Below, one piece after another: positions 1,649 to 20,717 of a DNA stretch of 33,820 nt. Origin of the DNA: an uncultured Methanosarcinales archaeon (GTDB lineage Archaea > Nanobdellota > Nanobdellia > Woesearchaeales > UBA119); NCBI GenBank assembly GCA_964580745.1, contig CAZOKS010000002.1, forward strand, positions 1 through 33,820, written 5' to 3'. A program made the position numbers and the translations under genes. Below the pieces are notes generated by a model. The model saw only the letters and a list, made by a program, of their open reading frames with translations. It was not told the origin of the DNA and made no database searches. The number at the start of each line of letters is the position of its first letter. Within the stretch, counting starts at the first letter, position 1.

Positions 1649-4600
1649 CTACTTTATCTCGGTATAGAAGGCAACCTTGTCATTGTCGGGCCCGACCAAT
1701 TGCCCCAAAGTAGCGGGGATCCGAATCTCAAAGTCTCTTGTTTCATTATATCCTTGCTGGGATTTATTCACTACCGTTAAGAAGATCACATCCTGAACCT
1801 CTGAATAAGTTGTTCCCCCATCGCTAAAATCCCATAAAATGCCCGTCTTGAAACTAGTGGAATTTGTGCTATTGACTACAGGGATATTTGTAATCTCTTG
1901 ATTATATACCTCCAGCTCTATTGTCTCCTTTGGATTTCCATTCTCCAGATATGTGGCATTAACAGAGTCAAAAAAAGTTGAGGAATTCAATGCATTATCC
2001 AACTCGCCAAAGTCCTCAATCCGTTCATTGCCCGAAGTGTCTCTCCCCAATGCTTGTAGGGATTGCCAATTAACATCCGCATCATAATCCGAAACATATA
2101 TGTTGCTTCCTGTTGAGTTTGCCACTTGCCATTGGAATATACCCTCCAGCTCTTCATCCTCAAGGGTTATCGTATCATTTGTCTCTCCTCCTGCATAATG
2201 CCAGAACTCTACTGTAATCGATTTAGAAGCATTGTTATTTGTCTCGTTCTCTTCCTCTATTTCGTTGCTTGGGTCCACTACTACAAAAATATCATTTGTA
2301 CCGAGCTCTGCAGTGTATTCAACACTCACGTTCTCCGATTCCAATGCTGTCAGGTTTATCGTTTGATTGCTTCCAATTTGGCTTCCGGAACCTCCAATCT
2401 CATTCTCCCAGAACTGAACAGTAATGTTCTTTGCATCTCCTCCGCCTATATTAAATACAGTCGCGGTAATATTCACAATTGAACCCTCGCTTGGCGAATC
2501 ATCACTGAAAAAGATGTTTGAAGAGTTAACCTCTAAATCAGGATAAGGTGAATAAAACAGATATGTCTCGCTCTGCCCTATATTTGTTGCATTATCAATA
2601 CAGCTTACATTCCAATAATGAGGCCCTCCCTCTAAATCGACCACACTCACATTCTCCTCGCTTCCATTTAACACCAAGATGTTCTGTTCGATAATCTCCC
2701 CATCCAATGTCAAATTGCAAATAAGCGACTCAGCCATGTTGTCCTCAACACTAAAGTTTAGGTTTGTAGTATCCGTGTCAATGGAAGAATCATTCTCAGG
2801 ATATGTAAGGTTGATACTTGGCTCAACAGTATCATAATAAACAATTATAGATGAAGAATTTTGTGCATTCAGCGCATTATCCTTTGCCTCAACTTTTATC
2901 TCGTATGTCCCATTCTGCAACCCAAGAAGATTCGCGCTATCCTCTGAATTGTTTCCTGAATTGCCCTCTGAATTGAAAGAATCATTCACATACACCGTAT
3001 AGTTAATAGGATTTGCCATATTGTCTTCAAGGATGAAGGAAATAGAAGGATTAGAATTAAACCAGGTATGATTTACAGTGGTAATGGTGCTGCTGGGTTC
3101 AACCAAATCAACATACAAAACCCTCTCAGAACTGATACCATATGCATGATAAGACGAATTGTCATAGCATTCTATTTGCCAGATATTTGTGTTGTTCATC
3201 CCTGAAACAGTAAAGGAATTCTCGCTGTTGTTTATTATGTTAAATTTAGTATCCTTTATTGCCCCATTCAAAACAATGGAACAATTCTCGATTCCGGTAT
3301 CATCAGTAACATTAAATCGAAATGTATTCGTATCTTGATTGCTCCATGTCAGATTCTTAGGAGACGTCACTTCAATCACGGGCGGAAAAAATACATTAAA
3401 TATCCTTGTTTCCGATGTGTTTGAGTTGTTTGCTTCATCAAAGCAGGTAACATTCCATAAGTGCTCTCCTTCACTTAGGTCCGTAGCCAGATATGAATTT
3501 TCCTCTCCCACATTCACATTACTCAAACCCTTATCTTCACCATCTAATGTAATATAACAGTCCGCAACAGACGCAAGGTTATCATAGACAGTATAATTCA
3601 AACTTACATCTGAAGTAGAAAAGTTTTCCTGATTAGGAGGATAATTAAGCTCAATGCTTGGCTTTTCAGTATCAATGTATATTATTTTAGAGGAACTGTT
3701 TTCCTTATTGCTCGCATCATCCTCTCCTTCTAAAACCAATAAATACTCACCATCCGGTTGAGTGTTCAAGGTAATGTTCTCAATAGAGTTGTTGCTAACA
3801 TATCCCTGATTCTCGGAACTTCCATTAATGTATAAAGTATAGTTGAGAATACTATCTAAGCTATCTATTATTCTAATGCTGATATTAGGTGCCGAGATGT
3901 TGAACCAGCTCTCGTTTGCTGTTAAAATCTCGCTTGTTGGAGCATTGGTATCCAGTGTAATATAAAGCTCACTTGAATTCTTTCTTCTATCCAAATAATC
4001 TAATCCTTCCACAAAAATAGTATTCAGACCCTCGTTCAGGTTAACACTGATGTTTTCTGAAACACCATCTATCCCTTCCCCTTCTTCTCCACTGAACATA
4101 TCATTCACATAAATTGAATAGTTTATTGCGCCGCCAGTATAATCATGGAGCGTAAAATTTAAATCCACATTACTGCTATTGAAAACGCTTTCATTCTCAG
4201 GAGAATTCCATTCCACCCACAACACAGATATGTTTAGTGTAGCATTATTATTAGATTCATTCAATTCATTTATGCTGTTTGAAGGATCTGCCGAAACAAA
4301 TACCACATGCATTCCTTCAGTAATGTTCCATTCTATATAAAATAAGGAAGAGTCATTATAAGCCACATTCTTCTGATCGCTTCCAATCAAGCTGCCCCCA
4401 TCATCAGGCCTTCCATCCCAGAACTCCACCTCAACATTGGAGGCATCTATACCTCCGATATTAGATACATTAGCAGTTATGTTTATCGTATCATTTATGC
4501 TTGGGTTTGTGTTATTGAAACCTATCAAAGACGCATTAATGTAAAGATCAGGCTGGTTGACAACAAAACGCCATGTCACCGAATAATCAGTATTGTTCAA

Positions 4601-7600
4601 ATCATCAGTACAACTCACATTCCAGAAATGCTCTCCATCGGACAGATTTTTTACTAACTTTGAGCTAACCTCTCCTGAAAAGCTTGTTATATTCTCTTCA
4701 AGGATATCCCCTTCTGGATCAGAAATGAACAAATCACAGCTAACCTCTACCGAAGAATTAAAGTCGGTGGCAGTCCAATTGAACAAAATATCATTTTGAT
4801 TAAAGAGCTGGTCATCGCTAGGATGATGTAGCTCCACACTAGGCCCTTCCAAATCAACATAAAAGCTCTTTGAAGAACCATTCGTTCCTGTATTAGAATT
4901 TGGATCAGAACAATTCACATCCCATGTATAGCTTCCGTTTGGCAAGTCATAGAGGTTGAAGCTCGCTTCTACCCCTGATTCCACTCCTGCGTTTGTTTCG
5001 TTTGCTTCAGAATTTAATATTAGGGTGCATAGGGATATGTTTCCAGAGTTGTCAGTCGCAGTAAAGTAAAGAGTCACATTAACACTATTATTCCTATAGT
5101 TGGCAATCGGATTGCCCAAGCTAACCTTGGGCGGTTCCTGAACAGCAAAATCCTCGCTATTGCTTTGGTTCTCATTTAGAGCATTATCCCTGCAAAAAAT
5201 ACTCCAATTATAATCCCCATCATCTATCCCTTCTATCGTAAAAGTCGTAGGTGCTCCATTATTGCTTGTAATATCGGTAACATTCAAGCTGTCATTTAGC
5301 CAAAGATCACAGCTCAGCTCAGTAGCAAGATTGTCAGAGGCAGTCCAATTAAACAATACCGAGCTAGAATCCAGCTCTTCTGAGTTGATAGGTGAATTAA
5401 GAGAAATTTGAGGAGACAGGTTGTCCACATAAAAGGTTTTGTTAGTGGGCATAAAGCTATTCCCATCGCTGTCATTACACTGAACACTCCAAAGGTATGC
5501 CCCTTGTGCAAGATCTCCCATCTCAAAGGTATTGTTTTGTTTATTTAATACAAAAGAAGCAGTTCTATTGTAGCTCCCATTTATATATAACGCACAGCCC
5601 GTTATCAGGATATCATCCGAAGGGAAATATGTTAGGTTTACATCTGTTTCATTGAACCAGCTTTCATTATCGGGCGCAACCAAAGTAACGTTGGGTGGTG
5701 CTTCAACATCAAAAAACCAGGTGTCAGAAACATTGAAGTTCCCTGCTTTATCAGTGCAATCCACACTCCAGTTGTACGTTCCATCATTTAAAATATAATA
5801 ATAGGTATATTCAGTTCCATTGGTTGTATTCAAGTCGGAACCTATTGAATAAGTAGAGCCTTCATCGGTAAGATAAACATCACAGCTTAACTCATCTGAG
5901 ATTTTATCTTTAGGAATAAATTTGAATGAAACATTATTTCTTGCTACAGTGGAATCATTCTCAGGATAAGTTAATTCAATCTCAAACGGCTCTTCTGAAT
6001 CCACATAATAAGTCCAATTCTCCGGAGCCATTCCCGAAAGATTATTAGTATCATAGCACTTAACATTCCAATTATACCTTCCATCTGGCAGAGTTACAGT
6101 AAAGTTGTTCTCTACCTTTGCATTAATGTCATACTTTGTTTCGTTTTCTTGGCCGTTTAGCATAAGAGTACAGTTTGTAAAATTCTCGCTTCCCAGACTT
6201 GGAATGTATTTGAAACTAACATCATGGAATAAGTCTCCATCACCATCCTCTGGCGATGTTAGATTAACTCTCGGGCTTAATAGCACTGTAAAATTCCTCG
6301 TTTCAGATATGTTTGTATTGGTTGCATTATCAACACATGAAACACTCCAGTTGAAATCCCCGTTCCTCAACCCAGTAACATTAAACAAGGCAGGTACACC
6401 ATTATTGCTCTCAATATTGCTTCCATTAACACTATCGTTTATTGAAAGATTACAGAGTAATCCTGTTGCGAAATTATCTGCCGCAGTCCAGTTAAAGGTA
6501 TAAACTGTAGTGTTAATCGTATAATCATTTTCAGGCAGATTTAATGAAATTGTTGGCCCAGTTCTATCCACAATAAACCTCCAAGTATCAGAACTATCTG
6601 AATTACCATATACGCCGCTGTCATTGCACTTCACAAACCAGTTATATTCAGCTTCAGCAGGGGAAGAAAGGGTGAAGTTGTTTGTTTGCCCTTTAAGAAC
6701 ATTAGTTGAATTGGACTGATTAAATGTGCTATTGATATACAGAGAACAGCCCTCAATGTCATCATTATCACTTATATTATACTCAATAAGCACATTACTC
6801 TGATTAGTATGCGTATTGTTGCTTGGTGATATTGGCTCAACAACAGGAGTCTGGTTAATAGTAAAGTTTCTTGTTTCAGAGTAGTTTATATTGCCTCCAA
6901 TGTCTGTGCAGCTCACATTCCAGTAATGCACCCCGTCTTTATAACCGTCTAGAGTAACATCATATTGATTTCCACTACTCACAATAGAAGTATCATTCTC
7001 TACTCCATCCACATACAAGGTGCAGTTTAGAGTGTCATAGTTGTCTGTAGGTGTGTAAGAGAAGGCAACCTCAGAATCAGTAAAATAAGCATCATTCCCT
7101 GGGCTTTGCAGGTTTATATACGGTTTAGTTAAATCAACATAAAGGGTTGCATTCCCTGTTGAAGCATTATTGCCATTATTATCATAACAAGTAACGCTCC
7201 AATTATACTCTGTTTCATCAAAAGAAACGCTAAAATTATTCAATCCATTTATCAGCACAGACTGATTACTTTGATTATAAATCCCATTTATGTATAACTC
7301 ACATTCGTCAAGCGCAAAATTATCAGAAGCATTATAGGTAAGCTCCACACTTGTTTCATTCGTCCCGCTTTCATTCTCAGGAGAATACAAAGAGACTTGA
7401 GGCGGCTCGTCAGATATGTTAAAGCTTCTTGTCTCCGAGGTATTGGTATTGTTAGCCAAATCTTGGCATGCAATATCCCAAATATAGTATCCTATTTCAA
7501 ACCCTTCGATGGTGGTAGTCGCAGGAGTAGCATTATAAGCAGTAATCGTTGTATTTCTTGTTCCGTTTATCCTCAAATCACAGCTCATGTTTGCAGCTCT

Positions 7601-11104: not shown

Positions 11105-11128
11105 CTGAAATCCTTACTTACCTTTCCT

Positions 11129-12022: not shown

Positions 12023-12159
12023 ATTTCCACCTTCTTGTTTTACGTCTTTTTAATTTCATTATTTTCTCTCATCCGCATTTACCCACATTTTCTCATATAG
12101 CAAACATAATGTTGTATTATGGATTCCTTTTGATTTTTATTGAGTATTATCCCTTGATA

Positions 12160-12672
12160 TTAGTCCCCTTTATTTCCATTGTCCTCCCTAACTCGCCTCA
12201 TAATCTCGCTCTTCAAGTCATACTCCTTCTTTTCTTTATCCTGTTTAATTTGTTTCTCAATTTGGCTAATCAACTCTCCAAGTTCGTTAATCCGTTCCTC
12301 ATCATCTTCAATCTCGAGAAAGCCAATCTTCCCCTTAGCCATCGTTAATAACGCCGAAGCATGAAACATATCCTTTCCTTCTTTTCTGGCAGCTGAAATC
12401 TCTCTATCCAACTCAGCCATCTTTTCCTTCAAACCCTCAAGCTTCTCCATTCCAACCCGAACATCTATTAGAGAGGATTCTTTCATCACATTAACCTTCT
12501 CAAGGTATTTCTCTGATTCTTTCATTACTTTATCAAACTCCTCTCTGCTTATGCTTCCCTCATTCTTTTTCTCATTCCTATTTTCATAACTCTCAGGATT
12601 TCTCTTTTCAGTTTTGTCTTCTTTATTCCTTACCTTATTCATTTCCTGGGCCATTAGACAACGCCTCAACAA
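12160..12672 (-). CDS. Small cytoplasmic coiled-coil protein (about 160-170 aa), function unknown
   Basis: The ORF limit is ATG 12672. In-frame ATGs at 12654 (MAQEMNKV) and 12642 (MNKV) are more plausible starts. ATG 12642 overlaps the TAA of the upstream 1369-aa gene as ATGAATAA. The protein is charged and helical with no TM. Confidence 0.7.
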   Translation of the reverse strand: MLRRCLMAQEMNKVRNKEDKTEKRNPESYENRNEKKNEGSISREEFDKVMKESEKYLEKVNVMKESSLIDVRVGMEKLEGLKEKMAELDREISAARKEGKDMFHASALLTMAKGKIGFLEIEDDEERINELGELISQIEKQIKQDKEKKEYDLKSEIMRRVREDNGNKGD

Positions 12673-15600
12673 GCTTGTCCTTCTTCATTAGATTACCAAT
12701 CCTTTCCGCGAATTCCTCATCCTCAAGGGAGTATTTTATCCAATTGGAAAAATCATGCTTTTCCTCATTTACATACTTCCTGAATGTCTCATCTGGCATA
12801 TCCTTTAATATCTCCTTTAATTCCTTAAGATTAGAGGCCACCTTTCCATCGGAAAATCTGAACTCCTTTCCTTTAGGAGCCTTCTTATTCAGCAGTCCTT
12901 CAAGATTATTCTTAGATTCAGGGCTCTCCAGAGTATCATCTTTATTCTTTTCCTTAGTTGTTTCATCAACATTCCCTTCACCTTCTTCGCCAGCCTCTTT
13001 GTTATTGCTTTTCCCTTCCTTTTCTTCCCTTTCTTTCCCCTCTTCTTTATTTTCTCTATCCTCTTCTCCTTTTTCTTTTCCTCCATCTTTCTCTTCTTTT
13101 CTATCTTCTCTGTTCTCATTATTTTCTCCTTCATCTCCTTTTTCTTCACTTACAGTATCGCTTTCTTCATCGTCTTTCCCTTCTTTTCTATCTTCTCCGT
13201 TCTCTTCACCCTTTCCATCCTCTCCATCCTTTCCATCATCCTCCTTGCTTTCGTTCTTCTTTTTATCATCCTTGCCTTTTTCTTTTTTAGGAAGTTTTTC
13301 TCCCTTGCTCCTTTTATCCAACAACTCCAAAATCTCCTTTCGGTCTTTAGTTTCATCAAGCAAATCAGCGAGCTCATCATCTCCAACTGCATTTCGAATC
13401 CAATCAGCAAAATCATTTTTCTCATCATTAACATGGAACTTGAAGTCTGAGTCCTTCATTGCCTCAATCTCTGCATACAAATCTCTGGGATTTACTACCA
13501 ACATGCCATTGTTAAGCTTCAGCATATTTTCAGGCTTTACATCTCTGTTAAATCTCTCCGTTACGGACTTCTCTGATTCCCCTTCCTTCTTCTTACCTTC
13601 TTCATCACCTTTTTTCTGTTCAGCCTCAATCTTCTCCCTTTCCTTCTTCGCTTTCTCCAGCTCCCTTCTCATCTCCTCTTCCGAAACCTTCGGCCTCTCC
13701 AACTTCTTTGGCTTTTTGCCAAGCTTCTTCCACAGCTTCTCAACCCTGGGCTTCAGGCCATCAAGATAGATTTTGGCCATGTTGAAACCTCCCGCCTTAA
13801 CCTTATCTAGTGCAAGTTTCAACTCCAACTTCAAGTCAAACACATCCTGGTCCAACTGTTCCAGCTGCTCCAACTCAAACTGCATCTGGTCAATAATATC
13901 ATTGTATTCGTTGTATTTCTCAATCTCTTCATCAGAAAGCCTCTCAACCGAATGCTTAATAGGTTTGAAAGTAACAAAGTAAGGCCGGCCTCTATTATAT
14001 GCCGAATTTTGCACCATCCCAGTTCCAACGCTTGCTTTAACCAAACTCTTCAAAACCTCATCACCGTACTTGGTCTTAATCCTCTCCAAATCCCCTTCAT
14101 CCCTTGTTCGCATCTGGATTTCCGTATTGATGTTAGCTTTAATCTGCCCCACGAAGTCCGCCAAAACCTGGCTAATAAGCATAACGCCAATTCCCCACTT
14201 CCTAAACTCTCGGCAAGCCCTTTCAATCTGGATAAAGCCCTCCCCACTTCCACCAAACTTGGATAGCAACCTATGGACCTCATCGTAAACCAAGCATAAT
14301 CTTAACTCTTGAGACTCATCAAAACCCTCATGGAATACCTCTCTAACTGTGTTCGCAACAAATACATCAATATCCTTAGGGTCAAGCTTATGAAGAGCAA
14401 AAACCTGAATTTCTCCCGGTTTCATATACTTCTTTATGTTAATAATCTCTTTAGCATCTGTAATCTCTCGAATGTTTCCCTTGAAAGCTTTAGCATCATT
14501 CGGCTTCATCCCAAATCCTGAATAAAGATTCAGCAACCCCTTATTCTCCAATTTCCTTAAAAATCCAGTCCACTGAGCAGTAGGATCAAACACAATAACA
14601 GCAACATCCTTATCCAACAACTCTTCAATAATTACCTGGGCAGCGAAACTCTTACCACCACCAGTACTACCTGCCACAATCGTGTGAGTCTTAAAGTTCT
14701 CAATCTTGAAATAAGTCCTATTATTCGTTTCTGCAATCTTCCCAACATATATCGTATCGGGTCCAGGTTTAGGAAGCTGCGAATACTCCACCTTCAAATG
14801 ATACTTCTTCTTCGCTTCAATTTCCTTTCTAAGCATAAATATGCCGAAAATCAATAAAGCCAATCCAATACCCATTAAGATGGCCTGCCAAACCCTTATC
14901 TTTCCAAACAAGAGATGCTGATAGAAAGGCTCTGTTACAGTAAAAACAGCACTAGTACTGCTCGTTAAATCAAGATAGCTGGCGCTTGCCCTGATTATAT
15001 ATTCGCCTGTAGGCAAATCAGGAGGCAGCTCATAATTCTTAATTATTGAAAGAGAAGTCCTCAAAAAAACATTCGTTTGATGAGTCCATAAAGTCTCATT
15101 GCCATTTATATTCTGAATAGTATAAACCAACTGCACCGGATACTGCTGGTCGGTAAGCAGATTTGTTAGAGAATTCTTGAATCTAACAAACGAGCCCGGA
15201 TAGTAATTCTTTTCAGGAACGCTGATTTCCATTAACATCGCCTGAACAGGACTCTTCTCCTTGCCTAAAATCTCAATAATGATAGGGATTGTCGTATTAA
15301 TCCCGCCAGTAATGTTAAGCGTTCCATTGTATACCCCTGGAGTGCTGTTTCCAAAGAAAGTCAAGGTCAAATCATCAAGGTCCTTTGCCCCAATAAACGT
15401 TCCCCTTTTATCCATCATTGTTATTTTCTTAACATCTCCTGTAATGTTAAATTGAAGCTGAATCCCCTTGTTCTTAAAACTCTGGATATGAATAACCTCT
15501 TGGGCAAACTCAGCCAGCCTAATCTTCTTATAGATTTTATTGACAGAAATCCAGAACTCCTTCCCCTCAATCTCAGAGGGCCTTTCTTTTCTATATGGGA

Positions 15601-16744
15601 TTTCGCCAGGACCCACATTCGGCCCAAAATCCGGTCCCACATTTTGTTCCGCGGGCGGGCTGTCATACTCTTTCTGCTCGACCTCCAGCTCCATGATAAT
15701 ATTATGCATGGTTGAATTGCCTTCCGGAATCGTGATATTGCTTTCATATACCTGATAGTTCTCCTTTATCGCGATTATCTGCGTCTCGCCCGCCCGCGTT
15801 GTCAGATTGTAAAAACCCTTCTCATCCGTAACCGTGGATTTTGGGCCGGATGTTATCAGCACATTCTCTAATGGATTCCCGCTTATATCAGTTACAATTC
15901 CATAAACTATTCCTTTTACATATGGTTCTTCTTGCCCCGAAATACAAACATTTGTAGGGTCTATGAAAACATAGTATTTTGTGGTTTGATTGTTGTGAAC
16001 AGGCAGGAGAAACTGGTAGTTGTAGTATCGATTGGTAAACCCCTTAACTAATCTCTCATTCAAGATGGTAACCACGACAGGATTCCCATTGCTGTCCTTC
16101 AAAAGGCCTGTTTTGAATGTGCCCTCTTCAGTGCCACTTCCTACTTTGGTTGTCGCAGCAGGTATGTTGTTGATGGTTTTGGAGCCAATCTCTATGCTCA
16201 TTGTCCCGGTAAAGGTATTGGAAGCAGAATCATAGTCATCTGGGTTCGAATTTATGAAGGCATTAACCTCGGCAGGAGACATTGGAACAAGGTCTTGCAC
16301 AACTATTTCTTCAGGAGGTACGGTAGATGCAAACAATAGGTTGTCTTTTCCTTCTTCTACACAATCAAAGAACATATTGGCTTCTTCTGTTCCCCCCGGC
16401 TCAAATGTGTATTCCCATGGCTGAGAAAAACCAACGCCAAATGCAGCACCGTATAAGGCAACCCAGTTGTATGTTGGTCTTGTGTATATAAGATTCATAT
16501 TATAGATATAACCGCCTCGCCCTTCATGATATATTATAAAACCGGTTATTCCTTCACGCCCTAAAAAAGAGGCTGTGATTAGGATTATTGCGCATACAAC
16601 AAGAGATATGATTATCGCCCAGTTCCTTTTACTATCCCTTTTCCTTTTATCTCTTTCATCTAGGAATTTCTCAAGGGCAGGCTCTCTTTCTATGAGATGT
16701 TCAATATCCTTATTTATCTGCTGCGGTTTTTTTATCCCAACCAC
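12635..16744 (-). CDS. Two-TM membrane protein (1369 aa): large ectodomain, cytoplasmic HerA/FtsK-superfamily P-loop ATPase, low-complexity linker and two conserved tail modules
   Basis: GTG start at 16744, directly after an in-frame TAG.
- Basic N-terminus.
- TM1 at aa 42-62 (16559-16621).
- Ectodomain with a carboxypeptidase-regulatory-like beta-sandwich (GIVYGIVTDISGNPLENVLITSG..TDEKGFYNL, about 15690-15930).
- TM2 at aa 618-638 (14831-14893).
- Walker A GSTGGGKS (14648-14671).
- Walker B LCLVYDE (14279-14299).
- Further context: VIVFDPTAQW, MLISQ, NTEIQMRTRD.
- Coiled coil, then a K/E/D/G-rich linker (about 12888-13295).
- Tail modules at about 13296-13560 and 12638-12887. Confidence 0.9.
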   Translation of the reverse strand: MVGIKKPQQINKDIEHLIEREPALEKFLDERDKRKRDSKRNWAIIISLVVCAIILITASFLGREGITGFIIYHEGRGGYIYNMNLIYTRPTYNWVALYGAAFGVGFSQPWEYTFEPGGTEEANMFFDCVEEGKDNLLFASTVPPEEIVVQDLVPMSPAEVNAFINSNPDDYDSASNTFTGTMSIEIGSKTINNIPAATTKVGSGTEEGTFKTGLLKDSNGNPVVVTILNERLVKGFTNRYYNYQFLLPVHNNQTTKYYVFIDPTNVCISGQEEPYVKGIVYGIVTDISGNPLENVLITSGPKSTVTDEKGFYNLTTRAGETQIIAIKENYQVYESNITIPEGNSTMHNIIMELEVEQKEYDSPPAEQNVGPDFGPNVGPGEIPYRKERPSEIEGKEFWISVNKIYKKIRLAEFAQEVIHIQSFKNKGIQLQFNITGDVKKITMMDKRGTFIGAKDLDDLTLTFFGNSTPGVYNGTLNITGGINTTIPIIIEILGKEKSPVQAMLMEISVPEKNYYPGSFVRFKNSLTNLLTDQQYPVQLVYTIQNINGNETLWTHQTNVFLRTSLSIIKNYELPPDLPTGEYIIRASASYLDLTSSTSAVFTVTEPFYQHLLFGKIRVWQAILMGIGLALLIFGIFMLRKEIEAKKKYHLKVEYSQLPKPGPDTIYVGKIAETNNRTYFKIENFKTHTIVAGSTGGGKSFAAQVIIEELLDKDVAVIVFDPTAQWTGFLRKLENKGLLNLYSGFGMKPNDAKAFKGNIREITDAKEIINIKKYMKPGEIQVFALHKLDPKDIDVFVANTVREVFHEGFDESQELRLCLVYDEVHRLLSKFGGSGEGFIQIERACREFRKWGIGVMLISQVLADFVGQIKANINTEIQMRTRDEGDLERIKTKYGDEVLKSLVKASVGTGMVQNSAYNRGRPYFVTFKPIKHSVERLSDEEIEKYNEYNDIIDQMQFELEQLEQLDQDVFDLKLELKLALDKVKAGGFNMAKIYLDGLKPRVEKLWKKLGKKPKKLERPKVSEEEMRRELEKAKKEREKIEAEQKKGDEEGKKKEGESEKSVTERFNRDVKPENMLKLNNGMLVVNPRDLYAEIEAMKDSDFKFHVNDEKNDFADWIRNAVGDDELADLLDETKDRKEILELLDKRSKGEKLPKKEKGKDDKKKNESKEDDGKDGEDGKGEENGEDRKEGKDDEESDTVSEEKGDEGENNENREDRKEEKDGGKEKGEEDRENKEEGKEREEKEGKSNNKEAGEEGEGNVDETTKEKNKDDTLESPESKNNLEGLLNKKAPKGKEFRFSDGKVASNLKELKEILKDMPDETFRKYVNEEKHDFSNWIKYSLEDEEFAERIGNLMKKDKLVEALSNGPGNE
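15959..16468 (-). other. Ectodomain segment (aa 93-262) of the ATPase protein carrying the unnamed module shared with the giant adhesin and the small secreted proteins
   Basis: TYNWVALYGAAFG...NLLFAS...DDYDSASNTFTGT.SIEIGSKTINNIP...GTFKTGLLKDSNGNPVVVTILNERLVKGFTNRYYNYQFLLPVHNNQTTKYYVFIDP. Compare FKTGILWDFSDGG..VIFLTVVNKSQQGYNETRDFEIRIPA..FYTEIK at the giant C-terminus. Confidence 0.6.
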
Positions 16745-16933
16745 CTATATAGTTTTCTTATCTTGTTTTAATGTTGTTTTGAGCGAAGTTTGGTTGCTGT
16801 TTTTGTGATTTTTTCCCCTTTTTCTTTGATTATATTCTATTTTGTTTTGCATGCGCTTTTTGTATGACTTTTTTCAAATTCCAATTAATGCTGTTTTTTT
16901 TATTTTCTTCATTTGGCTGTTTCTTTTATTTGG

Positions 16934-19900
16934 CTATTCGATGCTTTGGTTGTTGAGTATCTTAAGCAGGTCTTCTACCTCTTCCTTCAATTCTTTCTTA
17001 TCAGCATCATTTAAGAGGTCATAGGCTTCATTCAATTCCCTCATCCTTTCAATTTTGTCAATCTGTTTATCATCTCTTATCTCTTCTGCTGTTTTGTCTA
17101 TCATTTTTAAGAGATATGCTTTATTGATTTTGTCATGAATGCTAAGGGCTTCTTCATAAGCATCTTCTTTGATTCTCTGAGGCATCTTTTCATAAATCAA
17201 TTTAATTTCCTTGAACACCATGTTTGCTCTTTCCAAATTTCCTTCCTGAAGATAATCCAGAGCATCGTTTATCAAGGACCTTATCTGAGCCAATTGTTTT
17301 TTCTTTCTGCGTTTGGCAACGCTCAATATATTTTCTCCAACCTCAGTTGAAAATATTAGGTAAATGGCTATTACTACTGATACAAGGATTATGCCAAATA
17401 TAGGAGAGGTGAAATCAACATCAGGCAAAGAGAACGCTCCTGTTATCAAATTCCCTCCTTTATCAGTGGAGATTAGATTCTCTGAGAATACAATAGTTTG
17501 TGATTCTTTTATGCTCTCAAAATCTTTAAATTCATCAGTATAATAGATTATTTTATCCTTTAATTCGAATTTTACTAGCGGGTCTTTCTTTATTGTTTCC
17601 TGGCTGCTCACAAAAGTTATGGCATTTGTTGTTTCTGCGAAGCCTTTTGAGATGTTCTCTAATATAAAAACGCGAGTATGGTCCGCTCCTGAATAAGTGA
17701 TTACTTTTTCTACCAGCGTAATCTCTTCTGTATGGTTGTCAAGGAATTGGAGTGTTACATGGCTTGCCTTTGTTTCTACAGAAAGTTTGTTTTGGAGTTC
17801 CTTTAGTTTCTCTTCATCAACTTTTCCTAAAATTCCTTTCTCTTTAATATATTGGTTTGCTATACTAACCAGTTCTTGTTGTTTTGGGTAACTAACATAG
17901 CTCTCTGTTTTTTCTACCTTTAGAGTAGAAATTGTGTTTTTCTCCAACTCTTTTAACTCAGCCTGATATTCCTCAGCTTTCTTTTTCTTTTCGTCATTGC
18001 TTAGGTCTTTTCGGTATTGAAGATTGTTCAAATCCCTTATCTTTCTTTCGAATGTCTGGAGGGTCCTTTCCAGGTCTTGTTTTACTGATAACGCTTCGGC
18101 CGCTGATTTTGATTGTAGGTCAAGTCCGTTTAGGTTTTCAAATCCTTCTTCTATCTTTGTTCTTAAAGAGCCTGCATCTATGCTTCCATCTGTTTGCTCT
18201 TCTTTTGAACTCTTTTCTGTATCTGACTGCTGAACAGATGCAGTATTGTCCTTTTCCACCTCAAAGCTCGCAATCTCTGATGAGAATGTGTCATTCCCTG
18301 AATCACATTCAATCTTCCATTCATACTTTCCCTTATCTAGGGTTTTGGTTAGCTCTGCTACATAGTTTTCTTCTACATCGAAACTTTTAATCTCTTCAAA
18401 CCAATCAGATTTACTTGGTTTTAGGAAAATGGTACATTCTGCATCTTCTGCACTGCTCACGCTTGCTAAGAAAGTTATATCTTGGTAATCAAATGAGCTT
18501 TCATCTTTCGGCTGGAACAGGACTATTTGGTTGAGCTTCTCTCTTAAAGAGTTATCCAATTGAAGAACCACATCTATAGTCTGCTTCTCTTTGACTTCTA
18601 TAGCCCTTCTGTATGCTTCGTAATCCTTTTTCTCCACCCTTAAGGTATGCTCTCCAAGAGGCACCTTCAGCTTAATTTCACCATTATCTTTCGTATATCC
18701 GCTTCTGTCTCCGAAGTCCACATAGGCAGATTCGATAGCTTTGCCATTAGAGTCCTTAACTCTGATTGTGATTTCTCTCCAATCATCCACATCAACAGCA
18801 ATCTGCTTGGTTTTAGAGTTTCCTTCACTATCCTTAACCTCAAGAGTAATGCCATAATTTCCTTTTTCATCATATTTTATCTCCAGGTTTTTGTCTTCAA
18901 TTCTAGTTCCGTTCTCTAAAATCCATGAGTAGTGATAGCCGGGAATTCCTCCAGATGCGCTTGCTTCAAGCTCAAGTTCTTCCCCAACAAGAACATCTAG
19001 TTTTCCTTCAATCTCAATCTGCAGGTTATTTGAAACAACAAAGCTCTTTCCTATTTTATATGTTTTGTTTTGGTGGCTGATTGTTGCATTTATTGAATAT
19101 TCTCCCGTTGTGTTTAAACTTCCCAATGACTTTATCAGGGGGTATGTTTCTTTATTTAGAGTGTAAATATTGGAGCAGGTTATCCAGGTTTGTCCTGCCA
19201 TATACTCCGGCCCGCAAAACTCAATGTTGGCATTTGAACCATTCGGAGCTGTTATCTTGAAATATCCTTCCTCTCCTATTGTATAATTCTCCTTATTAAG
19301 CTCGAGTGAGAATACCAGCGGCAGAACCCCAATTTCCTTTTCAATCCTTTTTTCTTCGTAATTTTCAGAACCATTATATACTATTTCTATAAGGTATTCC
19401 CCCTTTTCAGAAAAGGTATGATTAACTGAAATGCTTTCTGAGGATACATAAGAATCATTGATTATTGAGCCATTGATTAGAAGGTATATCTTTCCTTCAG
19501 GGTTATTATTCTTGGCGTTAATCTCTATACTATCTCCTTCATATATGATGTTTTCAGAAATAGAAAACTCTATGTTTGGCTCAGCCCTCTTAACCTCAAA
19601 CTTAAATGTGGGAGTTGAATAAGTTTCATCTAACACATCTAACAGAAAAGATAGACTCCAAGTATAATTTCCCGAAGGAATTTCAGGAGTGGTGCAGGAA
19701 AAGTTATAAAGATTATCATCTGTTATTGTATTATAACTATATGTCCACTCAATATCTTCATTAATTGCTTCTCCATCTGGACCTATTGGTCCGTTTGGTT
19801 CTCCTCCATTGGAAATATTCCATACGCTCCATAATACAAATTTTTTATTAGGTTCATAAATAAAGCTTGAACCATCTTCTGGTCCGTACTTGTCAATCCA

Positions 19901-20131
19901 TTCTGCTGTTGGTTCGTTGTTTGTTTCGGGGTTGTTTGTTGTTTCATTGGTTTTAATTGTTTTTGCTGATTCATTGGTTTCATTGGTTTCATTTGTTGGG
20001 TCTAAGGTATCAGCCCCTATAACTATGTCCATTTCAATGGCAAAGCCCACAGCAAATACCGCAGCAATCAGCAATATCATTATGCTGGTATTAAAGATAT
20101 CCCAAAACCCAAATCTCCTCTCCTTTTTCAT
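16934..20131 (-). CDS. Bitopic surface protein (1065 aa): Ig/PKD-like and carboxypeptidase-regulatory-like domains, extracellular coiled coil, C-terminal TM and helical cytoplasmic tail
   Basis: Domain order:
- N-terminal signal/anchor (IMILLIAAVFAVGFAI).
- PKD-like GGIPGYHYSWILENGTRIEDKNLEIKYDEKGNYGITLEVKDSEGN (about 18790-18985).
- ITIRVKDSNGKAIESAYVDFGDRSGYTKDNGEIKLKV (about 18565-18775).
- One Ig repeat like those of the giant protein (KYEWKIECDSGND).
- Coiled coil.
- Juxtamembrane TIVFSENL...ITGA.
- TM PIFGIILVSVVIAIYLIFS (about 17345-17405).
- ~136-aa helical tail.
The start overlaps the upstream RHH stop as ATGA. Confidence 0.9.
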   Translation of the reverse strand: MKKERRFGFWDIFNTSIMILLIAAVFAVGFAIEMDIVIGADTLDPTNETNETNESAKTIKTNETTNNPETNNEPTAEWIDKYGPEDGSSFIYEPNKKFVLWSVWNISNGGEPNGPIGPDGEAINEDIEWTYSYNTITDDNLYNFSCTTPEIPSGNYTWSLSFLLDVLDETYSTPTFKFEVKRAEPNIEFSISENIIYEGDSIEINAKNNNPEGKIYLLINGSIINDSYVSSESISVNHTFSEKGEYLIEIVYNGSENYEEKRIEKEIGVLPLVFSLELNKENYTIGEEGYFKITAPNGSNANIEFCGPEYMAGQTWITCSNIYTLNKETYPLIKSLGSLNTTGEYSINATISHQNKTYKIGKSFVVSNNLQIEIEGKLDVLVGEELELEASASGGIPGYHYSWILENGTRIEDKNLEIKYDEKGNYGITLEVKDSEGNSKTKQIAVDVDDWREITIRVKDSNGKAIESAYVDFGDRSGYTKDNGEIKLKVPLGEHTLRVEKKDYEAYRRAIEVKEKQTIDVVLQLDNSLREKLNQIVLFQPKDESSFDYQDITFLASVSSAEDAECTIFLKPSKSDWFEEIKSFDVEENYVAELTKTLDKGKYEWKIECDSGNDTFSSEIASFEVEKDNTASVQQSDTEKSSKEEQTDGSIDAGSLRTKIEEGFENLNGLDLQSKSAAEALSVKQDLERTLQTFERKIRDLNNLQYRKDLSNDEKKKKAEEYQAELKELEKNTISTLKVEKTESYVSYPKQQELVSIANQYIKEKGILGKVDEEKLKELQNKLSVETKASHVTLQFLDNHTEEITLVEKVITYSGADHTRVFILENISKGFAETTNAITFVSSQETIKKDPLVKFELKDKIIYYTDEFKDFESIKESQTIVFSENLISTDKGGNLITGAFSLPDVDFTSPIFGIILVSVVIAIYLIFSTEVGENILSVAKRRKKKQLAQIRSLINDALDYLQEGNLERANMVFKEIKLIYEKMPQRIKEDAYEEALSIHDKINKAYLLKMIDKTAEEIRDDKQIDKIERMRELNEAYDLLNDADKKELKEEVEDLLKILNNQSIE

Positions 20132-20394
20132 TTTAAAGTCCTCAACGATTCTTTCAACTCTTTGAGTAATTGTTCGTTTCTTTCCAACATCGCTTCTAAT
20201 TCCTTTGCTTTTTTGGATGTGTTTTCGCGCTTTTTTGGAGTAAGAAGCCTTCGTTCTTTATCTTCGAGGAATCTCTTGTTTAAGACCGCCCTAATCTGTT
20301 CTGAAATATCCATATAAAAGTTCTTCTCGCTTAATGATTTCAATCTTCTTGCTAATCCAGCGGGCATTCTTATGCTAACTAAAGTGTCATTCAT
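20128..20394 (-). CDS. Ribbon-helix-helix DNA-binding protein with coiled-coil C-terminal extension (88 aa)
   Basis: LVSIRMPAGLARRLKSLSEKNFYMDISEQIRAVLNKRF fits the RHH strand plus two helices. There are ATGA overlaps with both neighbours (20391-20394 and 20128-20131). Confidence 0.8.
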   Translation of the reverse strand: MNDTLVSIRMPAGLARRLKSLSEKNFYMDISEQIRAVLNKRFLEDKERRLLTPKKRENTSKKAKELEAMLERNEQLLKELKESLRTLK

Positions 20395-20582
20395 TTCAGC
20401 GCCTCCTCTTCTTTTCTTATTCTTTTGTCATCCTTGTTATTACTTTCTTCCAACACATATTCTCTAAGGAAAGCCCTTATTGCTTCAGAACGAGATTTGA
20501 ACAAACCTTCTTTGATTAAATCATCTAACCAATTCACAATTTTTCTTGGAATTCTGACATTAACTGTTTCTATCTTAACCAT
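20391..20582 (-). CDS. Ribbon-helix-helix (CopG family-like) DNA-binding protein (63 aa)
   Basis: VNVRIPRKIVNWLDDLIKEGLFKSRSEAIRAFLREYV is a textbook CopG/NikR-N-terminal-type RHH pattern. It is the first gene of the minus-strand train. Confidence 0.85.
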   Translation of the reverse strand: MVKIETVNVRIPRKIVNWLDDLIKEGLFKSRSEAIRAFLREYVLEESNNKDDKRIRKEEEALK

Positions 20583-20604
20583 TCTGTTTCAACAAATACT
20601 TGTT

Positions 20605-20637
20605 TTGTATGCGTTATGTATGCTTTATGTATTTTAA
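20605..20637. promoter_or_regulatory. Three tandem 11-bp units (TTGTATGCGTT / ATGTATGCTTT / ATGTATTTTAA); candidate RHH operator overlapping the minus-strand promoter
   Basis: Read directly. (T/A)TGTAT begins at 20605, 20616 and 20627, one helical turn apart, 23-55 nt upstream of ATG 20582. A TTTAAAA/TTTTAAA TATA-like element lies at 20633-20639. Confidence 0.45.
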
Positions 20638-20700
20638 ATGTTGCATTTTGTAACTTTTTGTATGTTTTATATAATCTTAAAAGCATTTTTTGTAGTTGTC

Positions 20701-20717
20701 ATGTAAACGTCATGTAT
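20701..20717. promoter_or_regulatory. Second phased pair GTCATGTA-N3-GTCATGTA in the divergent intergenic region
   Basis: GTCATGTA occurs at 20698-20705 and 20709-20716, again with 11-bp spacing and the same ATGTA core as the 20605-20637 units. Confidence 0.35.

Follow-up and report, generated by a model that had tools for sequence, protein, structure and literature searches.

A conserved gene cassette of DPANN archaea as a candidate envelope complex built around a membrane-embedded HerA-type ATPase

Large envelope-spanning attachment organelles have been observed by cryo-ET in a cultured DPANN archaeon (PMC11420986); a term search of that paper returned no mention of an ATPase, a gene cluster or candidate genes. 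The enzyme at the centre of the locus reported here is nearest to HerA from Sulfolobus, whose structure 4d2i is the closest PDB sequence to the ATPase domain (E 6.5e-7) and also the top Foldseek match of the ATPase model (E 1.3e-6), followed by Sir2-HerA, TcpA, DndH, EccC and VirB4. The model is, however, of moderate confidence only (pLDDT 69.5) and the Foldseek TM-scores are low. The cassette does not correspond to a listed defence system, as PADLOC matched the ATPase only, on generic HerA-type models. No published description of the cassette was found, and we consider it undescribed, with partner proteins that lack known relatives, the ATPase superfamily excepted.

The window, i.e. the whole stretch of 33,820 nucleotides that was analysed, derives from a tiny archaeon (Woesearchaeota) that probably depends on a host. 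Every close relative bears Woesearchaeota or Nanoarchaeota in its title, which fits the earlier guess of an episymbiotic archaeon. Our analysis confirmed the train of seven minus-strand genes proposed in the initial annotation, which lies together with its upstream region as follows.

20583-20832, minus strand: divergent intergenic region upstream of RHH63, with A/T-rich TATA-like boxes
20391-20582, minus strand: RHH63, first gene of the train
20128-20394, minus strand: RHH88, second gene of the train
16934-20131, minus strand: BIT1065, a bitopic protein of 1065 aa
12635-16744, minus strand: ATP1369, a HerA-like ATPase of 1369 aa with two TM helices
12160-12672, minus strand: CC170 open reading frame, 170 aa
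12160-12642, minus strand: CC170 from the likely real ATG at 12642, 160 aa
11129-12022, minus strand: CC297, a predicted coiled coil of 297 aa
1649-11104, minus strand: ADH3151, a giant surface protein of 3151 aa

The junctions were likewise read correctly: ATGA overlaps join RHH63 to RHH88 and RHH88 to BIT1065, gaps of 189 nt and 24 nt separate BIT1065 from ATP1369 and CC297 from ADH3151, and the claimed overlap of the CC170 start with the ATPase stop amounts to 8 nt from the ATG at 12642, with an identical overlap in locus L001. The GTG start of ATP1369 immediately follows an in-frame TAG. CC170 and CC297 are 137 nt apart; this gap and that of 189 nt are large enough that internal promoters could lie within them. 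The divergent region probably serves as promoter for the train and, in the opposite direction, for an ABC operon; this function is inferred, and the TATA-like boxes come from a simple pattern search only. Whole-window searches yielded no tRNA, no Rfam RNA and no metabolic or informational Pfam domain, in agreement with the absence of such genes noted before.

The ATPase is encoded in at least 565 species-representative genomes. Its neighbourhood was analysed at 84 related loci, mostly from different species-representative genomes, where neighbours were counted among same-strand flanking genes and only at loci with enough flank. The conserved order is RHH, RHH, a bitopic Ig/PKD protein of about 1000 aa, the two-TM HerA-like ATPase of about 1300 aa, a small "mid" protein and a predicted coiled coil of about 350 aa, and it is retained in 92–98% of the adequately flanked loci. 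In detail, the BIT1065 orthologue lies directly upstream of the ATPase in 60 of 64 loci, the first RHH orthologue was found in 56 of 57 testable loci and the second in 56/57, the CC297 orthologue in 56/61, and the mid protein between ATPase and CC297 in 55/56. Absence of the gene order from every relative had been set beforehand as the result that would refute the train; this is decisively not the case. Indeed, the arrangement is far beyond chance and recurs in essentially every related locus examined, and order, strand and near-zero spacing are retained across dozens of species despite orthologue identities of only about 20–60%. The train genes are inherited as one block. A Micrarchaeota locus carries a CC297 orthologue 450 nt downstream of the ATPase gene (E 2.2e-57). 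Some distant members of the ATPase family are solitary or soluble (L090, L092).

Two of the previously proposed associations held only in part. A giant Ig/CARDB ORF follows CC297 in 28 of 46 loci, so that the adhesin is a frequent but not a universal member. About one locus in three lacks it or has another gene in its place. The second is the divergent neighbour of the train:

20833-23604, plus strand: ABC ATPase and ABC-2 permease with a large coiled-coil insertion

In the 84-locus set the same ABC-train arrangement occurs, besides the window, only in L001/L002, L008 and L013. The ABC operon is an occasional associate rather than a core member of the cassette.

ATP1369 consists of a cytoplasmic N-terminus, TM1 (residues 43-61), an ectodomain of 560 aa, TM2 (residues 620-638), the ATPase domain, a helical bundle and a K/E/G-rich tail. 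This topology is backed by the N-glycosylation sequons, 10 in the ectodomain versus 2 in the cytoplasmic part, as well as by the charge flanks of the TM helices.

15962-16534, minus strand: S253-like module of the ATPase (residues 71-261, next to TM1), by BLASTP and family HMM
14831-14887, minus strand: TM2 (residues 620-638), by topology prediction
13715-14827, minus strand: HerA-type ATPase domain and helical bundle (residues 640-1010), by Pfam DUF87
13316-13534, minus strand: DUF5752/OrfY-like module 1 of the tail (residues 1071-1143), module HMM E 1.7e-27
12659-12877, minus strand: DUF5752/OrfY-like module 2 of the tail (residues 1290-1362), module HMM E 3.9e-22

Pfam identifies DUF87/HerA (DUF87 45.1 bits, cut-off 23.2) and DUF5752. 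Walker A (GSTGGGKS, 692-699), Walker B (LVYDEVHR) and the REFRKWG...SQ motif are invariant across 19 orthologues, 364 clusters match the domain at E<=1e-30, and a TM helix at the position of TM2 recurs across the family representatives. The catalytic core is intact, extremely conserved and placed on the cytoplasmic side of the TM helix; its activity is inferred. The ectodomain is a variable, glycosylation-prone beta-sandwich: its model is all-beta with tandem Ig/FnIII/PapD-like matches, and apart from the conserved first 28 or so residues (pLDDT 29-44) it reaches a pLDDT of about 75-94.

Shared modules had been proposed to link the train to the secreted-protein operon and to a second bitopic protein of 1057 aa. 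They are real and extend further than claimed.

1652-2206, minus strand: S253-like module at the adhesin C-terminus (residues 2967-3151), by hhalign
23821-25424, plus strand: S253 and S262, secreted paralogues consisting almost wholly of the S253-like module, outside the train coordinates
25414-26355, plus strand: S313, third secreted protein of the triad, with 18 sequons
26840-30013, minus strand: BIT1057, second bitopic protein, 1057 aa
26861-27088, minus strand: DUF5752/OrfY-like module ending the BIT1057 tail (residues 976-1051), by module HMM

The S253-like module is found in the membrane-proximal part of the ATPase ectodomain (BLASTP to S253 E 1.5e-6; family HMM after iteration E 2.9e-63), at the adhesin C-terminus (hhalign probability 96%, E 3.6e-9) and in the two free paralogues S253 and S262 (BLASTP E 4.8e-31 to each other). 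The family HMM further places it at the N-terminal end of 86 related ATPase ORFs, and in L005 the complete adhesin carries it C-terminally as well (HMM E 8.3e-29). Neither Pfam nor the PDB contains a sequence relative of the family, and the module has no fold match. The S253-S262-S313 triad is encoded close to the cassette in L003/L004, L005/L009, L008, L039, L047, L054 and L059, with S313 orthologues of 56% identity directly after those of S262 in L003 and L005; L082 has S253/S262-like genes near the cassette without S313.

ADH3151 has an N-terminal hydrophobic signal/anchor and, by topology prediction, no other hydrophobic segment. It comprises at least 17 Ig-like repeats of about 94 aa with a conserved Cys pair and two CARDB domains (Pfam Big_13, Big_7, CARDB), and carries 184 N-glycosylation sequons. 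BIT1065 is built of a signal/anchor, Ig-like, PKD and CarboxypepD_reg domains (the latter two by Pfam), a coiled-coil segment, a juxtamembrane domain, a TM helix (911-929; the first is at 16-34) and a helical cytoplasmic tail of about 135 aa, with 20 sequons in the ectodomain versus 1 in the tail. The juxtamembrane domain is common to BIT1065 and BIT1057 (BLASTP).

Across DPANN, the ectodomain that precedes the same ATPase domain ranges in length from about 200 to more than 5600 aa, from which we conclude that giant surface proteins are often fused directly to the motor. In 40 N-complete family representatives of at least 2000 aa a giant ectodomain precedes this domain, none of them (0/40) with an S253-like module, which is present in 24 of 39 representatives of 1100-2000 aa. 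These fusions provide independent support for a physical coupling of motor and adhesin.

On the cytoplasmic side, the acidic DUF5752/OrfY-like module occurs twice in the ATPase tail, once in the BIT1057 tail and in orthologues of CC170. A profile of these modules matches OrfY in the PDB (4cso, E 2.7e-7), which has two DUF5752-like repeats within one chain. CC170 is a short mid protein: the N-terminal module present in 38 of 55 mid orthologues is absent, and the C-terminal helical region with its IS..RK.GKD motif is kept. CC297 has 220 homologues but no Pfam or PDB sequence relative; orthologue alignment reveals an N-terminal MWPFKKK/MGLFKKK motif and, in many orthologues, a C-terminal amphipathic motif of the KKGFFxKLFKKK type. 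Both proteins contain 45–49% charged residues and no TM helix. Their designation as coiled coils is a prediction from composition, weak SMC/Rad50-type matches and direct reading of the sequence, without a dedicated predictor.

RHH63 matches Pfam RHH_1 (26.7 bits, cut-off 20.5) and is predicted to regulate the cassette. As it resembles the RHH domain of NikR and CdrS about equally, we regard it as a generic RHH protein. RHH88 has a C-terminal helical extension and no Pfam match; it is related to RHH63 by BLASTP (E 0.003), and its orthologues retain an RHH-like N-terminus.

We interpret the train as encoding a single envelope complex, made of several proteins and conserved in DPANN archaea, in which a membrane-embedded HerA-type ATPase is physically coupled to surface adhesins, an interpretation to which we would give an even chance of being correct. 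Like its relatives, the ATPase would assemble into a ring, each subunit being fixed in the membrane through two TM helices. The adhesin, which has no anchor at its C-terminus, and the small proteins S253 and S262 may dock onto the S253-like domains of the ATPase; such docking is inferred from homology and distribution of the module only. The bitopic Ig/PKD protein beside the ATPase might be a stalk or co-receptor, and inside the cell the DUF5752 modules, the mid protein and CC297, the latter bound to the membrane through its terminal amphipathic motifs, might constitute a membrane-bound scaffold or motor regulator. Transcription would be controlled by the two RHH proteins. ATP hydrolysis at the contact site would then move a polymer through the ring, most likely DNA, given the homology with HerA, FtsK, coupling proteins and CedB, or alternatively a polypeptide. 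Substrate and transport direction, inferred by analogy, are the least supported steps: apart from the RHH regulators the locus lacks any recognisable DNA-binding domain, nor does it encode a nuclease; its DUF5752 modules are acidic, and nothing in it points to DNA. The adhesin has its own N-terminal signal-like segment and therefore does not need to pass through the ATPase. Direct evidence is lacking for complex formation, ring assembly and localisation; that the genes are co-transcribed, that the structure spans the envelope, that it acts in cell-cell contact and that any substrate is transferred are likewise inferences.

It is unlikely, though a serious possibility, that the ATPase is instead a dedicated protein export or assembly motor without DNA transport, like EssC/EccC of type VII or VirB4 of type IV secretion. 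The ATPase model has EccC, EssC and VirB4 among its structural neighbours, but the nearest relatives by sequence and fold are HerA enzymes acting on DNA; similarly, genes for small helical proteins adjoin the ATPase gene as in type VII loci, but no FHA domains, multiple ATPase domains, WXG-like proteins or VirB-type partners were found. Cargo could be S253, S262 and S313 or the cytoplasmic coiled-coil proteins. The three secreted proteins and the adhesin, however, bear N-terminal signal-like hydrophobic segments, so that Sec export suffices. In a variant, S253-like modules would form a fibre that is tipped by the adhesin and rooted in the ATPase ectodomain. Such a layout of anchor, small free subunits and a C-terminal domain of a large adhesin recalls tip/shaft/base pili, the low pLDDT of the first ectodomain residues is that expected of a strand ordered only in an oligomer, and archaeal donor-strand filaments without a known assembly machine exist (PMC9715654), yet there is no evidence that the module polymerises.

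It also seems rather improbable that the ATPase is the DPANN counterpart of FtsK, a membrane-anchored DNA pump clearing or segregating chromosomes at the division site, with the coiled-coil/amphipathic-helix proteins as divisome scaffolds, the RHH pair as cell-cycle regulators and the surface proteins only loosely linked. That a pump of the HerA/FtsK superfamily is anchored in the membrane would agree with this, as would the very strong conservation of its core among DPANN phyla, which a housekeeping function would lead one to expect, and HVO_1301, a HerA-domain protein, is at midcell in Haloferax; FtsK_SpoIIIE, however, does not reach the Pfam cut-off, and a gamma domain is lacking. The terminal motifs of CC297 are of the membrane-binding kind known from MinD, SepF and CdpC (10.64898/2026.07.16.738847), but the Pfam-annotated flanks contain no ftsZ, sepF, min, smc or xer genes. 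RHH63 reaches 40 bits against the CdrS model, and among 49 orthologues 9 match the aCcr1 cell-cycle regulator model; the similarity is generic, as NikR scores equally well. Finally, a division pump leaves unexplained the ectodomains of adhesin-type domains in their full size range, and the adhesin has a specific module in common with the ATPase ectodomain.

A mobile-element or virus-derived module, in which, for instance, a conjugation-like or packaging ATPase would be combined with receptor-binding proteins and RHH regulators, is very improbable: archaeal plasmids and viruses commonly encode HerA/FtsK-type ATPases and RHH regulators (PMC4158269), the coupling protein TcpA is one of the fold matches, and weak PHROG matches to terminase, Hoc-like and tail-fibre families were obtained, but a search of 2.9 million viral contigs gave a single weak P-loop match, the window is of uniform sequence composition and holds no integrase, relaxase, capsid, portal or replication gene, and the ATPase is widespread with a fixed cassette order. 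That the genes are functionally unrelated and adjacent merely because surface-protein genes cluster in small genomes is hardly credible and ruled out by the conservation data; the homologous modules common to several of the proteins and the ectodomain-ATPase fusions also speak against it, even though no gene other than the ATPase has a known function and the adhesin and ABC operon are variable neighbours.

If true, the proposed adhesin-coupled complex would offer a concrete candidate for how Woesearchaeota cells hold, and perhaps exchange material with, other cells. Compared with the soluble enzyme of the same superfamily, the ERACREFRKWG...SQ stretch of the ATPase aligns with REGRKFG...SQ of HerA, and TM2 lies some 50 residues ahead of Walker A, where soluble HerA has its HAS-barrel.

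The initial annotation had read seven minus-strand genes at 1649-20582 as one co-directional train, and all seven are present in the ORF table.

Features of the window, with the Pfam matches of the train proteins
20391-20582, minus strand: first RHH protein, RHH63 (RHH_1)
20128-20394, minus strand: second RHH protein, RHH88
16934-20131, minus strand: 1065-aa bitopic protein, BIT1065 (PKD and CarboxypepD_reg)
12635-16744, minus strand: ATPase, ATP1369 (DUF87, the HerA central domain, CarboxypepD_reg and DUF5752)
12160-12642, minus strand: 'mid' protein of 160-170 aa
11129-12022, minus strand: 297-aa coiled coil, CC297
1649-11104, minus strand: adhesin, ADH3151 (Big_13, Big_7 and CARDB)
99-377 and 423-623, plus strand: two small ORFs downstream of the adhesin, no family match
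21919-23604, plus strand: ABC-2 permease with a coiled-coil insertion of ~320 aa between TM1 and the other five TM helices, and a weak EzrA match
23821-25424, plus strand: secreted paralogues S253 and S262
26840-30013, minus strand: second bitopic protein, BIT1057
30300-32081, plus strand: P593, with a signal sequence, an ectodomain, a TM helix at 549-567 and a short cytoplasmic tail carrying a CxxC...CxxC zinc-ribbon-like motif
32147-32860, plus strand: P237, a secreted protein of 237 aa with 11 sequons at the opposite end of the window, no family match

The ATGA overlaps between the two RHH genes and between the second RHH gene and that of the 1065-aa protein were seen in the sequence, and the reported gaps of 189 nt between the 1065-aa protein and the ATPase and of 24 nt between the 297-aa protein and the adhesin proved correct; an additional gap of 137 nt (12023-12159) lies between the genes for the 170-aa and 297-aa proteins. 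The start codon of the ATPase is GTG 16744, immediately preceded by an in-frame TAG. The true start of the 170-aa ORF is most likely ATG 12642, which gives a protein of 160 aa and overlaps the ATPase stop by 8 nt, an overlap also found in the orthologous locus L001. At the position of the 189-nt gap (16745-16933) the nearest loci (L003, L005 and L001) have an overlap of 4 nt or a gap of 1 nt. A simple T-run check detected no oligo-T tract in the internal gaps 16745-16933 and 12023-12159, and this absence is weak evidence in favour of read-through, transcription itself being inferred; internal promoters in the 189-nt and 137-nt gaps cannot be excluded.

The claim that metabolic and informational genes are missing from the window also held, as no such domain, no tRNA and no Rfam RNA was found in it, and outside the train an ABC transporter is the sole recognisable system. 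A plus-strand ORF of 364 aa (12675-13769), S/F/L-rich in translation, was rejected as a gene, being an antisense shadow cast by the tail of the ATPase, which is rich in K, E and G. The same purine-rich coding also accounts for the GC and AT skew, which is strongly negative at 11-14 kb.

A search with the whole ATPase returned 20 full-length relatives of 1077-1438 aa, and both of those with a named source belong to Candidatus Woesearchaeota. Five genomic contexts, obtained by exact protein look-up, show one and the same order, namely an RHH protein (53-75 aa), a further protein (87-89 aa), a bitopic protein (991-1083 aa), the ATPase and two mid-size proteins, followed by a giant Ig/CARDB protein of 2464-7158 aa where the contig continues. 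According to BLASTP, each of the seven proteins of the window has its orthologue at the corresponding position of those contexts. In a distribution scan with one genome per species, at least 565 species-level genomes encode a relative of the ATPase, and the titles of the best 80 of these at least 565 loci are nearly all Woesearchaeota or Nanoarchaeota. Odd titles on cassette contigs and proteins include Methanosarcinales, Saccharibacteria, Alphaproteobacteria, Patescibacteria, Nitrospirae and Leptospiraceae (locus records L009, L010, L012, L013, L062 and others; ATPase-family proteins P0101, P0200 and P0253) and probably stem from errors made in the binning or labelling of public MAGs.

For the neighbour counts, ORFs were called in all loci and assigned by BLASTP, and only loci with enough flanking sequence were used. 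The bitopic protein lies directly upstream of the ATPase in 60/64 testable loci, the first RHH gene is found in 56/57 and the second likewise in 56/57, the protein between ATPase and coiled coil in 55/56 and the 297-aa coiled coil downstream in 56/61. A downstream giant ORF of any kind was seen in 32 of 46 loci and an adhesin-like one in 28 of 46. From these counts it is concluded that the six genes other than the adhesin form a fixed core, of which the adhesin is a frequent companion. The proposal of a functional train would have been refuted by a gene order not conserved in any relative; the order is kept in relatives, with neighbour counts from 56/61 to 56/57.

Several further genes were observed around the cassette. 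In ~21 loci a protein of ~197 aa with a winged-helix-like N-terminus is encoded between the CC297 orthologue and the adhesin (e.g. L020 17346-17939, L017 16182-16775 and L049 14892-15488); the window lacks it. An ABC gene pair divergent from the RHH genes occurs only in the window, L001/L002, L008 and L013, and the insertion in the ABC-2 permease presumably recalls the layout of YhgE/Pip/EsaA. An orthologue of P593 with 41% identity is located in L006 (8009-9700, minus strand) downstream of P0020, a distant relative of the ATPase, with one 191-aa gene between them, and P593 may be a further associate of the ATPase family. One P237-like ORF was found downstream of the cassette in L071.

The part of the ATPase that follows its second TM helix is cytoplasmic and carries a Walker A motif (GSTGGGKS), a Walker B motif (LVYDEVHR) and the stretch ERACREFRKWG...SQ, which aligns with REGRKFG...SQ of Sulfolobus HerA. 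Walker A, Walker B and the Arg-rich SQ motif are invariant in 19 orthologues, and the mean column identity of this part reaches 78% in 11 orthologues. Pfam assigns DUF87 (PF01935) with 45.1 bits against a cut-off of 23.2. The closest solved relative by sequence is HerA (4d2i, E 6.5e-7), and anti-phage HerA proteins were also retrieved. An AlphaFold model of residues 640-1150, of moderate quality (pLDDT 69.5), gave 4d2i again as top Foldseek match (E 1.3e-6, probability 1.00) with low TM-scores of 0.33-0.36, followed by Sir2-HerA, the coupling protein TcpA, DndH, EccC and VirB4. From motifs, sequence matches and fold matches we conclude that the ATPase is a member of the HerA clade of the FtsK-HerA superfamily. 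There is no room for the usual HAS-barrel, as only ~50 residues separate the second TM helix (620-638) from Walker A (692) and the TM helix takes its place, and no NurA nuclease or Sir2/DUF4297 effector accompanies the ATPase in the window or in related loci.

Scores for other families of the superfamily remained below their cut-offs: 18.4 bits against 24 for FtsK_SpoIIIE, 16.2 against 20.5 for TrwB_AAD_bind and 28 against 366 for SXT_TraD, with TraC also under its cut-off. The top NCBIfam match, CedD, reached 32.3 bits against 600 and covers the P-loop region only. The reading as a defence system was rejected, as PADLOC matched the ATPase alone, by its generic HerA and mad8 models, and gave nothing for the partners. 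A virus or provirus was likewise rejected, with nothing beyond weak PHROG matches and one P-loop match on a viral contig.

According to hydrophobicity, TM helices are located at 43-61 and 620-638 of the ATPase and at 16-34 and 911-929 of the 1065-aa protein. The region between the two helices of the ATPase is predicted to be extracellular and contains 10 N-glycosylation sequons versus 2 in the cytoplasmic part. The model of this ectodomain (62-618; pLDDT 77.9) is all-beta, and Foldseek retrieved tandem Ig/FnIII/ASH/PapD-like proteins. Residues 62-89 (window ~16478-16561) carry the strongly conserved sequence YTGY.AYHEG.GGYIY..NL, yet were modelled at a pLDDT of 29-44 versus ~75-94 for the remainder of the S253-like domain, a module named after the secreted protein S253. 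Judging from this model, the segment could be ordered only in an oligomer, e.g. as a donor strand.

With the ATPase domain alone, 364 clusters were found at E<=1e-30 among 1.84 billion representatives, and the record names cover six DPANN phyla (Woese-, Pace-, Nano-, Alti-, Micr- and Aenigmarchaeota). Most N-complete representatives follow one plan, with an N-terminal hydrophobic segment, an ectodomain of ~200 to >5600 aa, a TM helix and the ATPase domain; among the giants are P0084 with 6253 aa, P0103 with 5743 aa and P0052 with 4862 aa, the last named Woesearchaeota. A relative of 402 aa from a metabolically richer genome has no N-terminal ectodomain and is followed by a TPR protein of 500 aa (L092 9250-10752). 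TPR repeats are also found in the C-terminal tail of some Woesearchaeal orthologues (P0018, P0019 and P0223), at the position where most close orthologues have their second DUF5752 module; the tail apparently serves as a region for exchangeable adaptors. In the Altiarchaeota locus L089 (1-2971) ectodomain plus TM helix and ATPase are encoded by two ORFs, the second beginning just before Walker A, which is probably due to a frameshift or assembly error dividing one gene. A 'fused' ORF of 2019 aa in the Micrarchaeota locus L088 was discarded as a spurious extension, as it lacks a TM helix and its N-terminal composition is odd.

Shared modules had been proposed to link the train with the plus-strand secreted-protein operon and the 1057-aa protein, and such links were indeed recovered in the form of S253-like, DUF5752-like and juxtamembrane homologies. 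S253 and S262, the secreted paralogues encoded after the ABC genes, consist almost wholly of the S253-like module. Residues 71-261 of the ATPase, adjoining its first TM helix, are homologous to it. The N-terminal parts of 86 related ATPase ORFs show this homology too, and so does the adhesin in its final 185 residues (hhalign probability 96%, E 3.6e-9). The adhesin of L005 (duplicate L009), the sole complete related one among the loci, also ends with this module (E 8.3e-29). Among N-complete ATPase representatives the module occurs in 24 of the 39 with 1100-2000 aa and in none of the 40 with at least 2000 aa. We infer that it serves to attach a separate adhesin to the ATPase and is dispensable where a giant ectodomain is fused to the latter. 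A profile search of Pfam and PDB found no relative of the S253-like family, and the Foldseek result for the whole ectodomain model is dominated by its two C-terminal Ig-like domains, leaving the S253-like fold unmatched.

Two copies of the DUF5752-like module lie in the ATPase tail (1071-1143 and 1290-1362). The BIT1057 tail ends with another, and 38/55 orthologues of the 170-aa protein carry the module at the N-terminus, the 170-aa protein in the window being a short form without it. For PF19027 the ATPase scores 30.6 bits against a cut-off of 23, and 29/31 modules match this family; a profile of the 31 modules matches both repeats of OrfY from Thermoproteus tenax (PDB 4cso, E 2.7e-7). The modules are acidic, and in our reading they are protein-protein connectors rather than DNA binders. 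A compensation of DUF5752 copy number between ATPase and 'mid' protein was considered, without any clear rule being found. Additionally, BIT1065 and BIT1057 have a juxtamembrane ectodomain in common, and the Cys-pair Ig module of the adhesin is also present in the BIT1065 family.

The adhesin matches Big_13 (E 6.7e-36), Big_7 (E 4e-26) and CARDB (E 3.3e-18), includes at least 17 repeats, each of ~94 aa, carries 184 sequons, and has a single hydrophobic segment, located at the N-terminus. It thereby qualifies as an Ig-repeat/CARDB surface adhesin, its adhesive function being inferred. CC297 is the second most conserved protein of the cassette (48-59% identity in the nearest loci). Its N-terminus reads MWPFKKK or MGLFKKK, and many orthologues end with a KKGFFxKLFKKK-like sequence; we take these motifs to resemble amphipathic membrane-targeting helices of the MinD type. 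No relative in Pfam or by sequence in PDB was found for CC297, and none of its 220 homologues has an informative source name, most being unnamed or 'hypothetical protein'. In a Micrarchaeota locus the ATPase gene is followed, 450 nt downstream, by a CC297 orthologue (E 2.2e-57), from which we conclude that the ATPase-CC297 pair predates the Woesearchaeal cassette. An assignment of CC297 to ESCRT-III/PspA/Vipp1, prompted by 'MGLFGKK', was rejected, as 0/55 members matched Pfam Snf7 or PspA and no PDB sequence match was better than E 0.3; the similarity is kept merely as a comment on motifs for membrane binding. The lead RHH protein could not be identified as CdrS (NF058555) either: it reaches 40.2 bits against 100, and the window has no ftsZ. 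NikR RHH models match as many of the 49 orthologues of this protein as CdrS does, with equal E-values.

Taken together, the cassette is real, strongly conserved and, as far as can be told, undescribed, and its reading as a single envelope complex is supported, the complex and the motor activity remaining inferences. A HerA-type motor would sit in the membrane with an ectodomain that carries or docks adhesins, and a bitopic stalk-like partner, a membrane-associated cytoplasmic scaffold and two RHH regulators would complete the complex. Polymer translocation is what homology would lead one to expect of the motor. To our knowledge, all characterised HerA-clade relatives act on DNA; nothing else in the locus speaks for DNA as the substrate. 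We give a motor-coupled adhesion/translocation complex about an even chance of being the correct description.

The wider FtsK-HerA superfamily includes protein-secretion and pilus-assembly ATPases, and a cassette devoted to protein export or fibre assembly is unlikely without being negligible. A division role like that of FtsK is distinctly unlikely: the extreme conservation of the ATPase core, the amphipathic motifs of CC297 and the midcell location of a HerA-domain protein in Haloferax (preprint 10.64898/2026.07.16.738847) would fit it, but the ectodomains are hypervariable and adhesin-like, that of the ATPase has a module in common with the adhesin, and the RHH similarity is merely generic. 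A mobile-element module is very improbable, given the absence of integrase, relaxase and capsid genes and the one weak match to viral contigs, and the notion of unrelated genes that happen to be neighbours, with their order kept in relatives, deserves practically no credence.

Returning to the motor-coupled complex, a stronger version of it would regard the cassette as a categorically new DPANN surface organelle, a 'motorised adhesin', which we put forward only tentatively and consider rather doubtful. Here a membrane-embedded HerA-type ring would bear a giant adhesin or a short S253-like fibre, either fused or docked via the S253-like module, and would, driven by ATP, pull DNA or another polymer from the attached host cell or push it into the host. 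In that case the envelope-spanning structures for attachment and feeding seen in cryo-ET of cultured DPANN archaea would have their genetic basis in the cassette.

DPANN archaea make up a large share of archaeal diversity, and most of them appear to live attached to other cells. As far as we know, the molecules for their attachment and for acquisition of host material are almost unknown. The cassette is a defined and widely conserved gene set joining a cytoplasmic motor to hypervariable giant surface proteins, and it provides handles for tagging, pull-downs and subtomogram assignment. It predicts specific docking between modules, an active, ring-forming ATPase and a complex positioned at host contacts. 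Should DNA or protein be carried from cell to cell by the motor, archaea would have a new route for transfer between species, and this would be the first adhesin directly joined to a HerA/FtsK-type pump.

In the literature searched, no paper with DUF5752 and none on DPANN together with DUF87 was found, and a search for DPANN or Woesearchaeota with HerA gave nothing on the cassette. Work on archaeal 'dark matter' includes HerA-like helicases solely as probable ATPases of viruses (PMC4158269), and the giant PKD/Kelch/CARDB surface proteins of a cultured Micrarchaeon were described without noting any link to an ATPase (PMC5498576). By cryo-ET, a very large attachment organelle was seen to bridge a Nanobdellota cell (YN1) and its host (PMC11420986); searching this paper by term gave no mention of any ATPase, gene cluster or candidate genes. 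Two possible analogues were dismissed, the Ig-protein module VARTIG of Thermococcales, whose paper does not mention an ATPase, and the Sulfolobus thread cluster, where no ATPase is assigned to the thread genes.

Among known systems, HerA (HerA-NurA end-resection, 4d2i; Sir2-HerA and DUF4297-HerA) is the best match in sequence and fold, with DUF87, Walker A and B and REGRKxG...SQ. Unlike HerA, however, ATP1369 has a TM helix ~50 residues before Walker A in place of the HAS-barrel, a second TM helix, an extracellular domain of 560 aa and a long tail with DUF5752 modules, and instead of NurA, Sir2 or a nuclease partner its neighbours are all envelope or coiled-coil proteins. VirD4/TrwB/TcpA and the archaeal Ced ATPases are pumps of the same superfamily with N-terminal TM anchors and a cytoplasmic ATPase that act at cell-cell contacts, and the mark of a type IV coupling protein, a pair of N-terminal TM helices ahead of an ATPase in the cytoplasm, is also found in ATP1369. 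The loop between these helices is short in coupling proteins and Ced, whereas in ATP1369 it is a multi-domain ectodomain of 560 aa, and the window contains no relaxase, VirB4/VirB6-like, CedA-like or pilin genes.

FtsK/SpoIIIE are hexameric pumps anchored in the membrane, as ATP1369 is inferred to be; the two belong to one superfamily and both have a long linker or tail and small modules at the C-terminus. FtsK, however, has a four-TM N-domain, a gamma winged helix and a genetic link to division genes, whereas ATP1369 has two TM helices, no gamma domain, OrfY-like C-terminal modules, a large variable ectodomain and a link to adhesins. Type VII secretion (EssC/EccC with EsaA) likewise employs a two-TM ATPase of the FtsK/HerA superfamily, EccC and EssC being among the distant fold matches, and its neighbours are also a large membrane protein with a long extracellular domain and small helical proteins. 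In contrast to Type VII, ATP1369 has a single ATPase domain instead of three, FHA, WXG100 and LXG are missing, and only the ATPase superfamily is homologous.

The type I-secreted adhesins SiiE and LapA offer a giant tandem Ig-repeat adhesin beside a dedicated ATPase and a proposed terminal cell-holding module. The motor of the train is HerA-like, not ABC, the archaeon has no outer membrane, and ADH3151 has an N-terminal signal-like segment, with the proposed retention module at its C-terminus. Finally, OrfY (4cso, DUF5752) is matched in both of its repeats by the ~75-aa cytoplasmic module found in the ATPase tail, in BIT1057 and in the 'mid' proteins. OrfY is a small, soluble two-repeat protein and, according to its depositors, a transcription factor, whereas the modules of the cassette are single, acidic and appended to membrane proteins. 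The accessory parts of the cassette have nothing in common with type IV, type VII, Ced or FtsK systems; it is of a known kind only through its ATPase superfamily, while its architecture and all of its partners are new.
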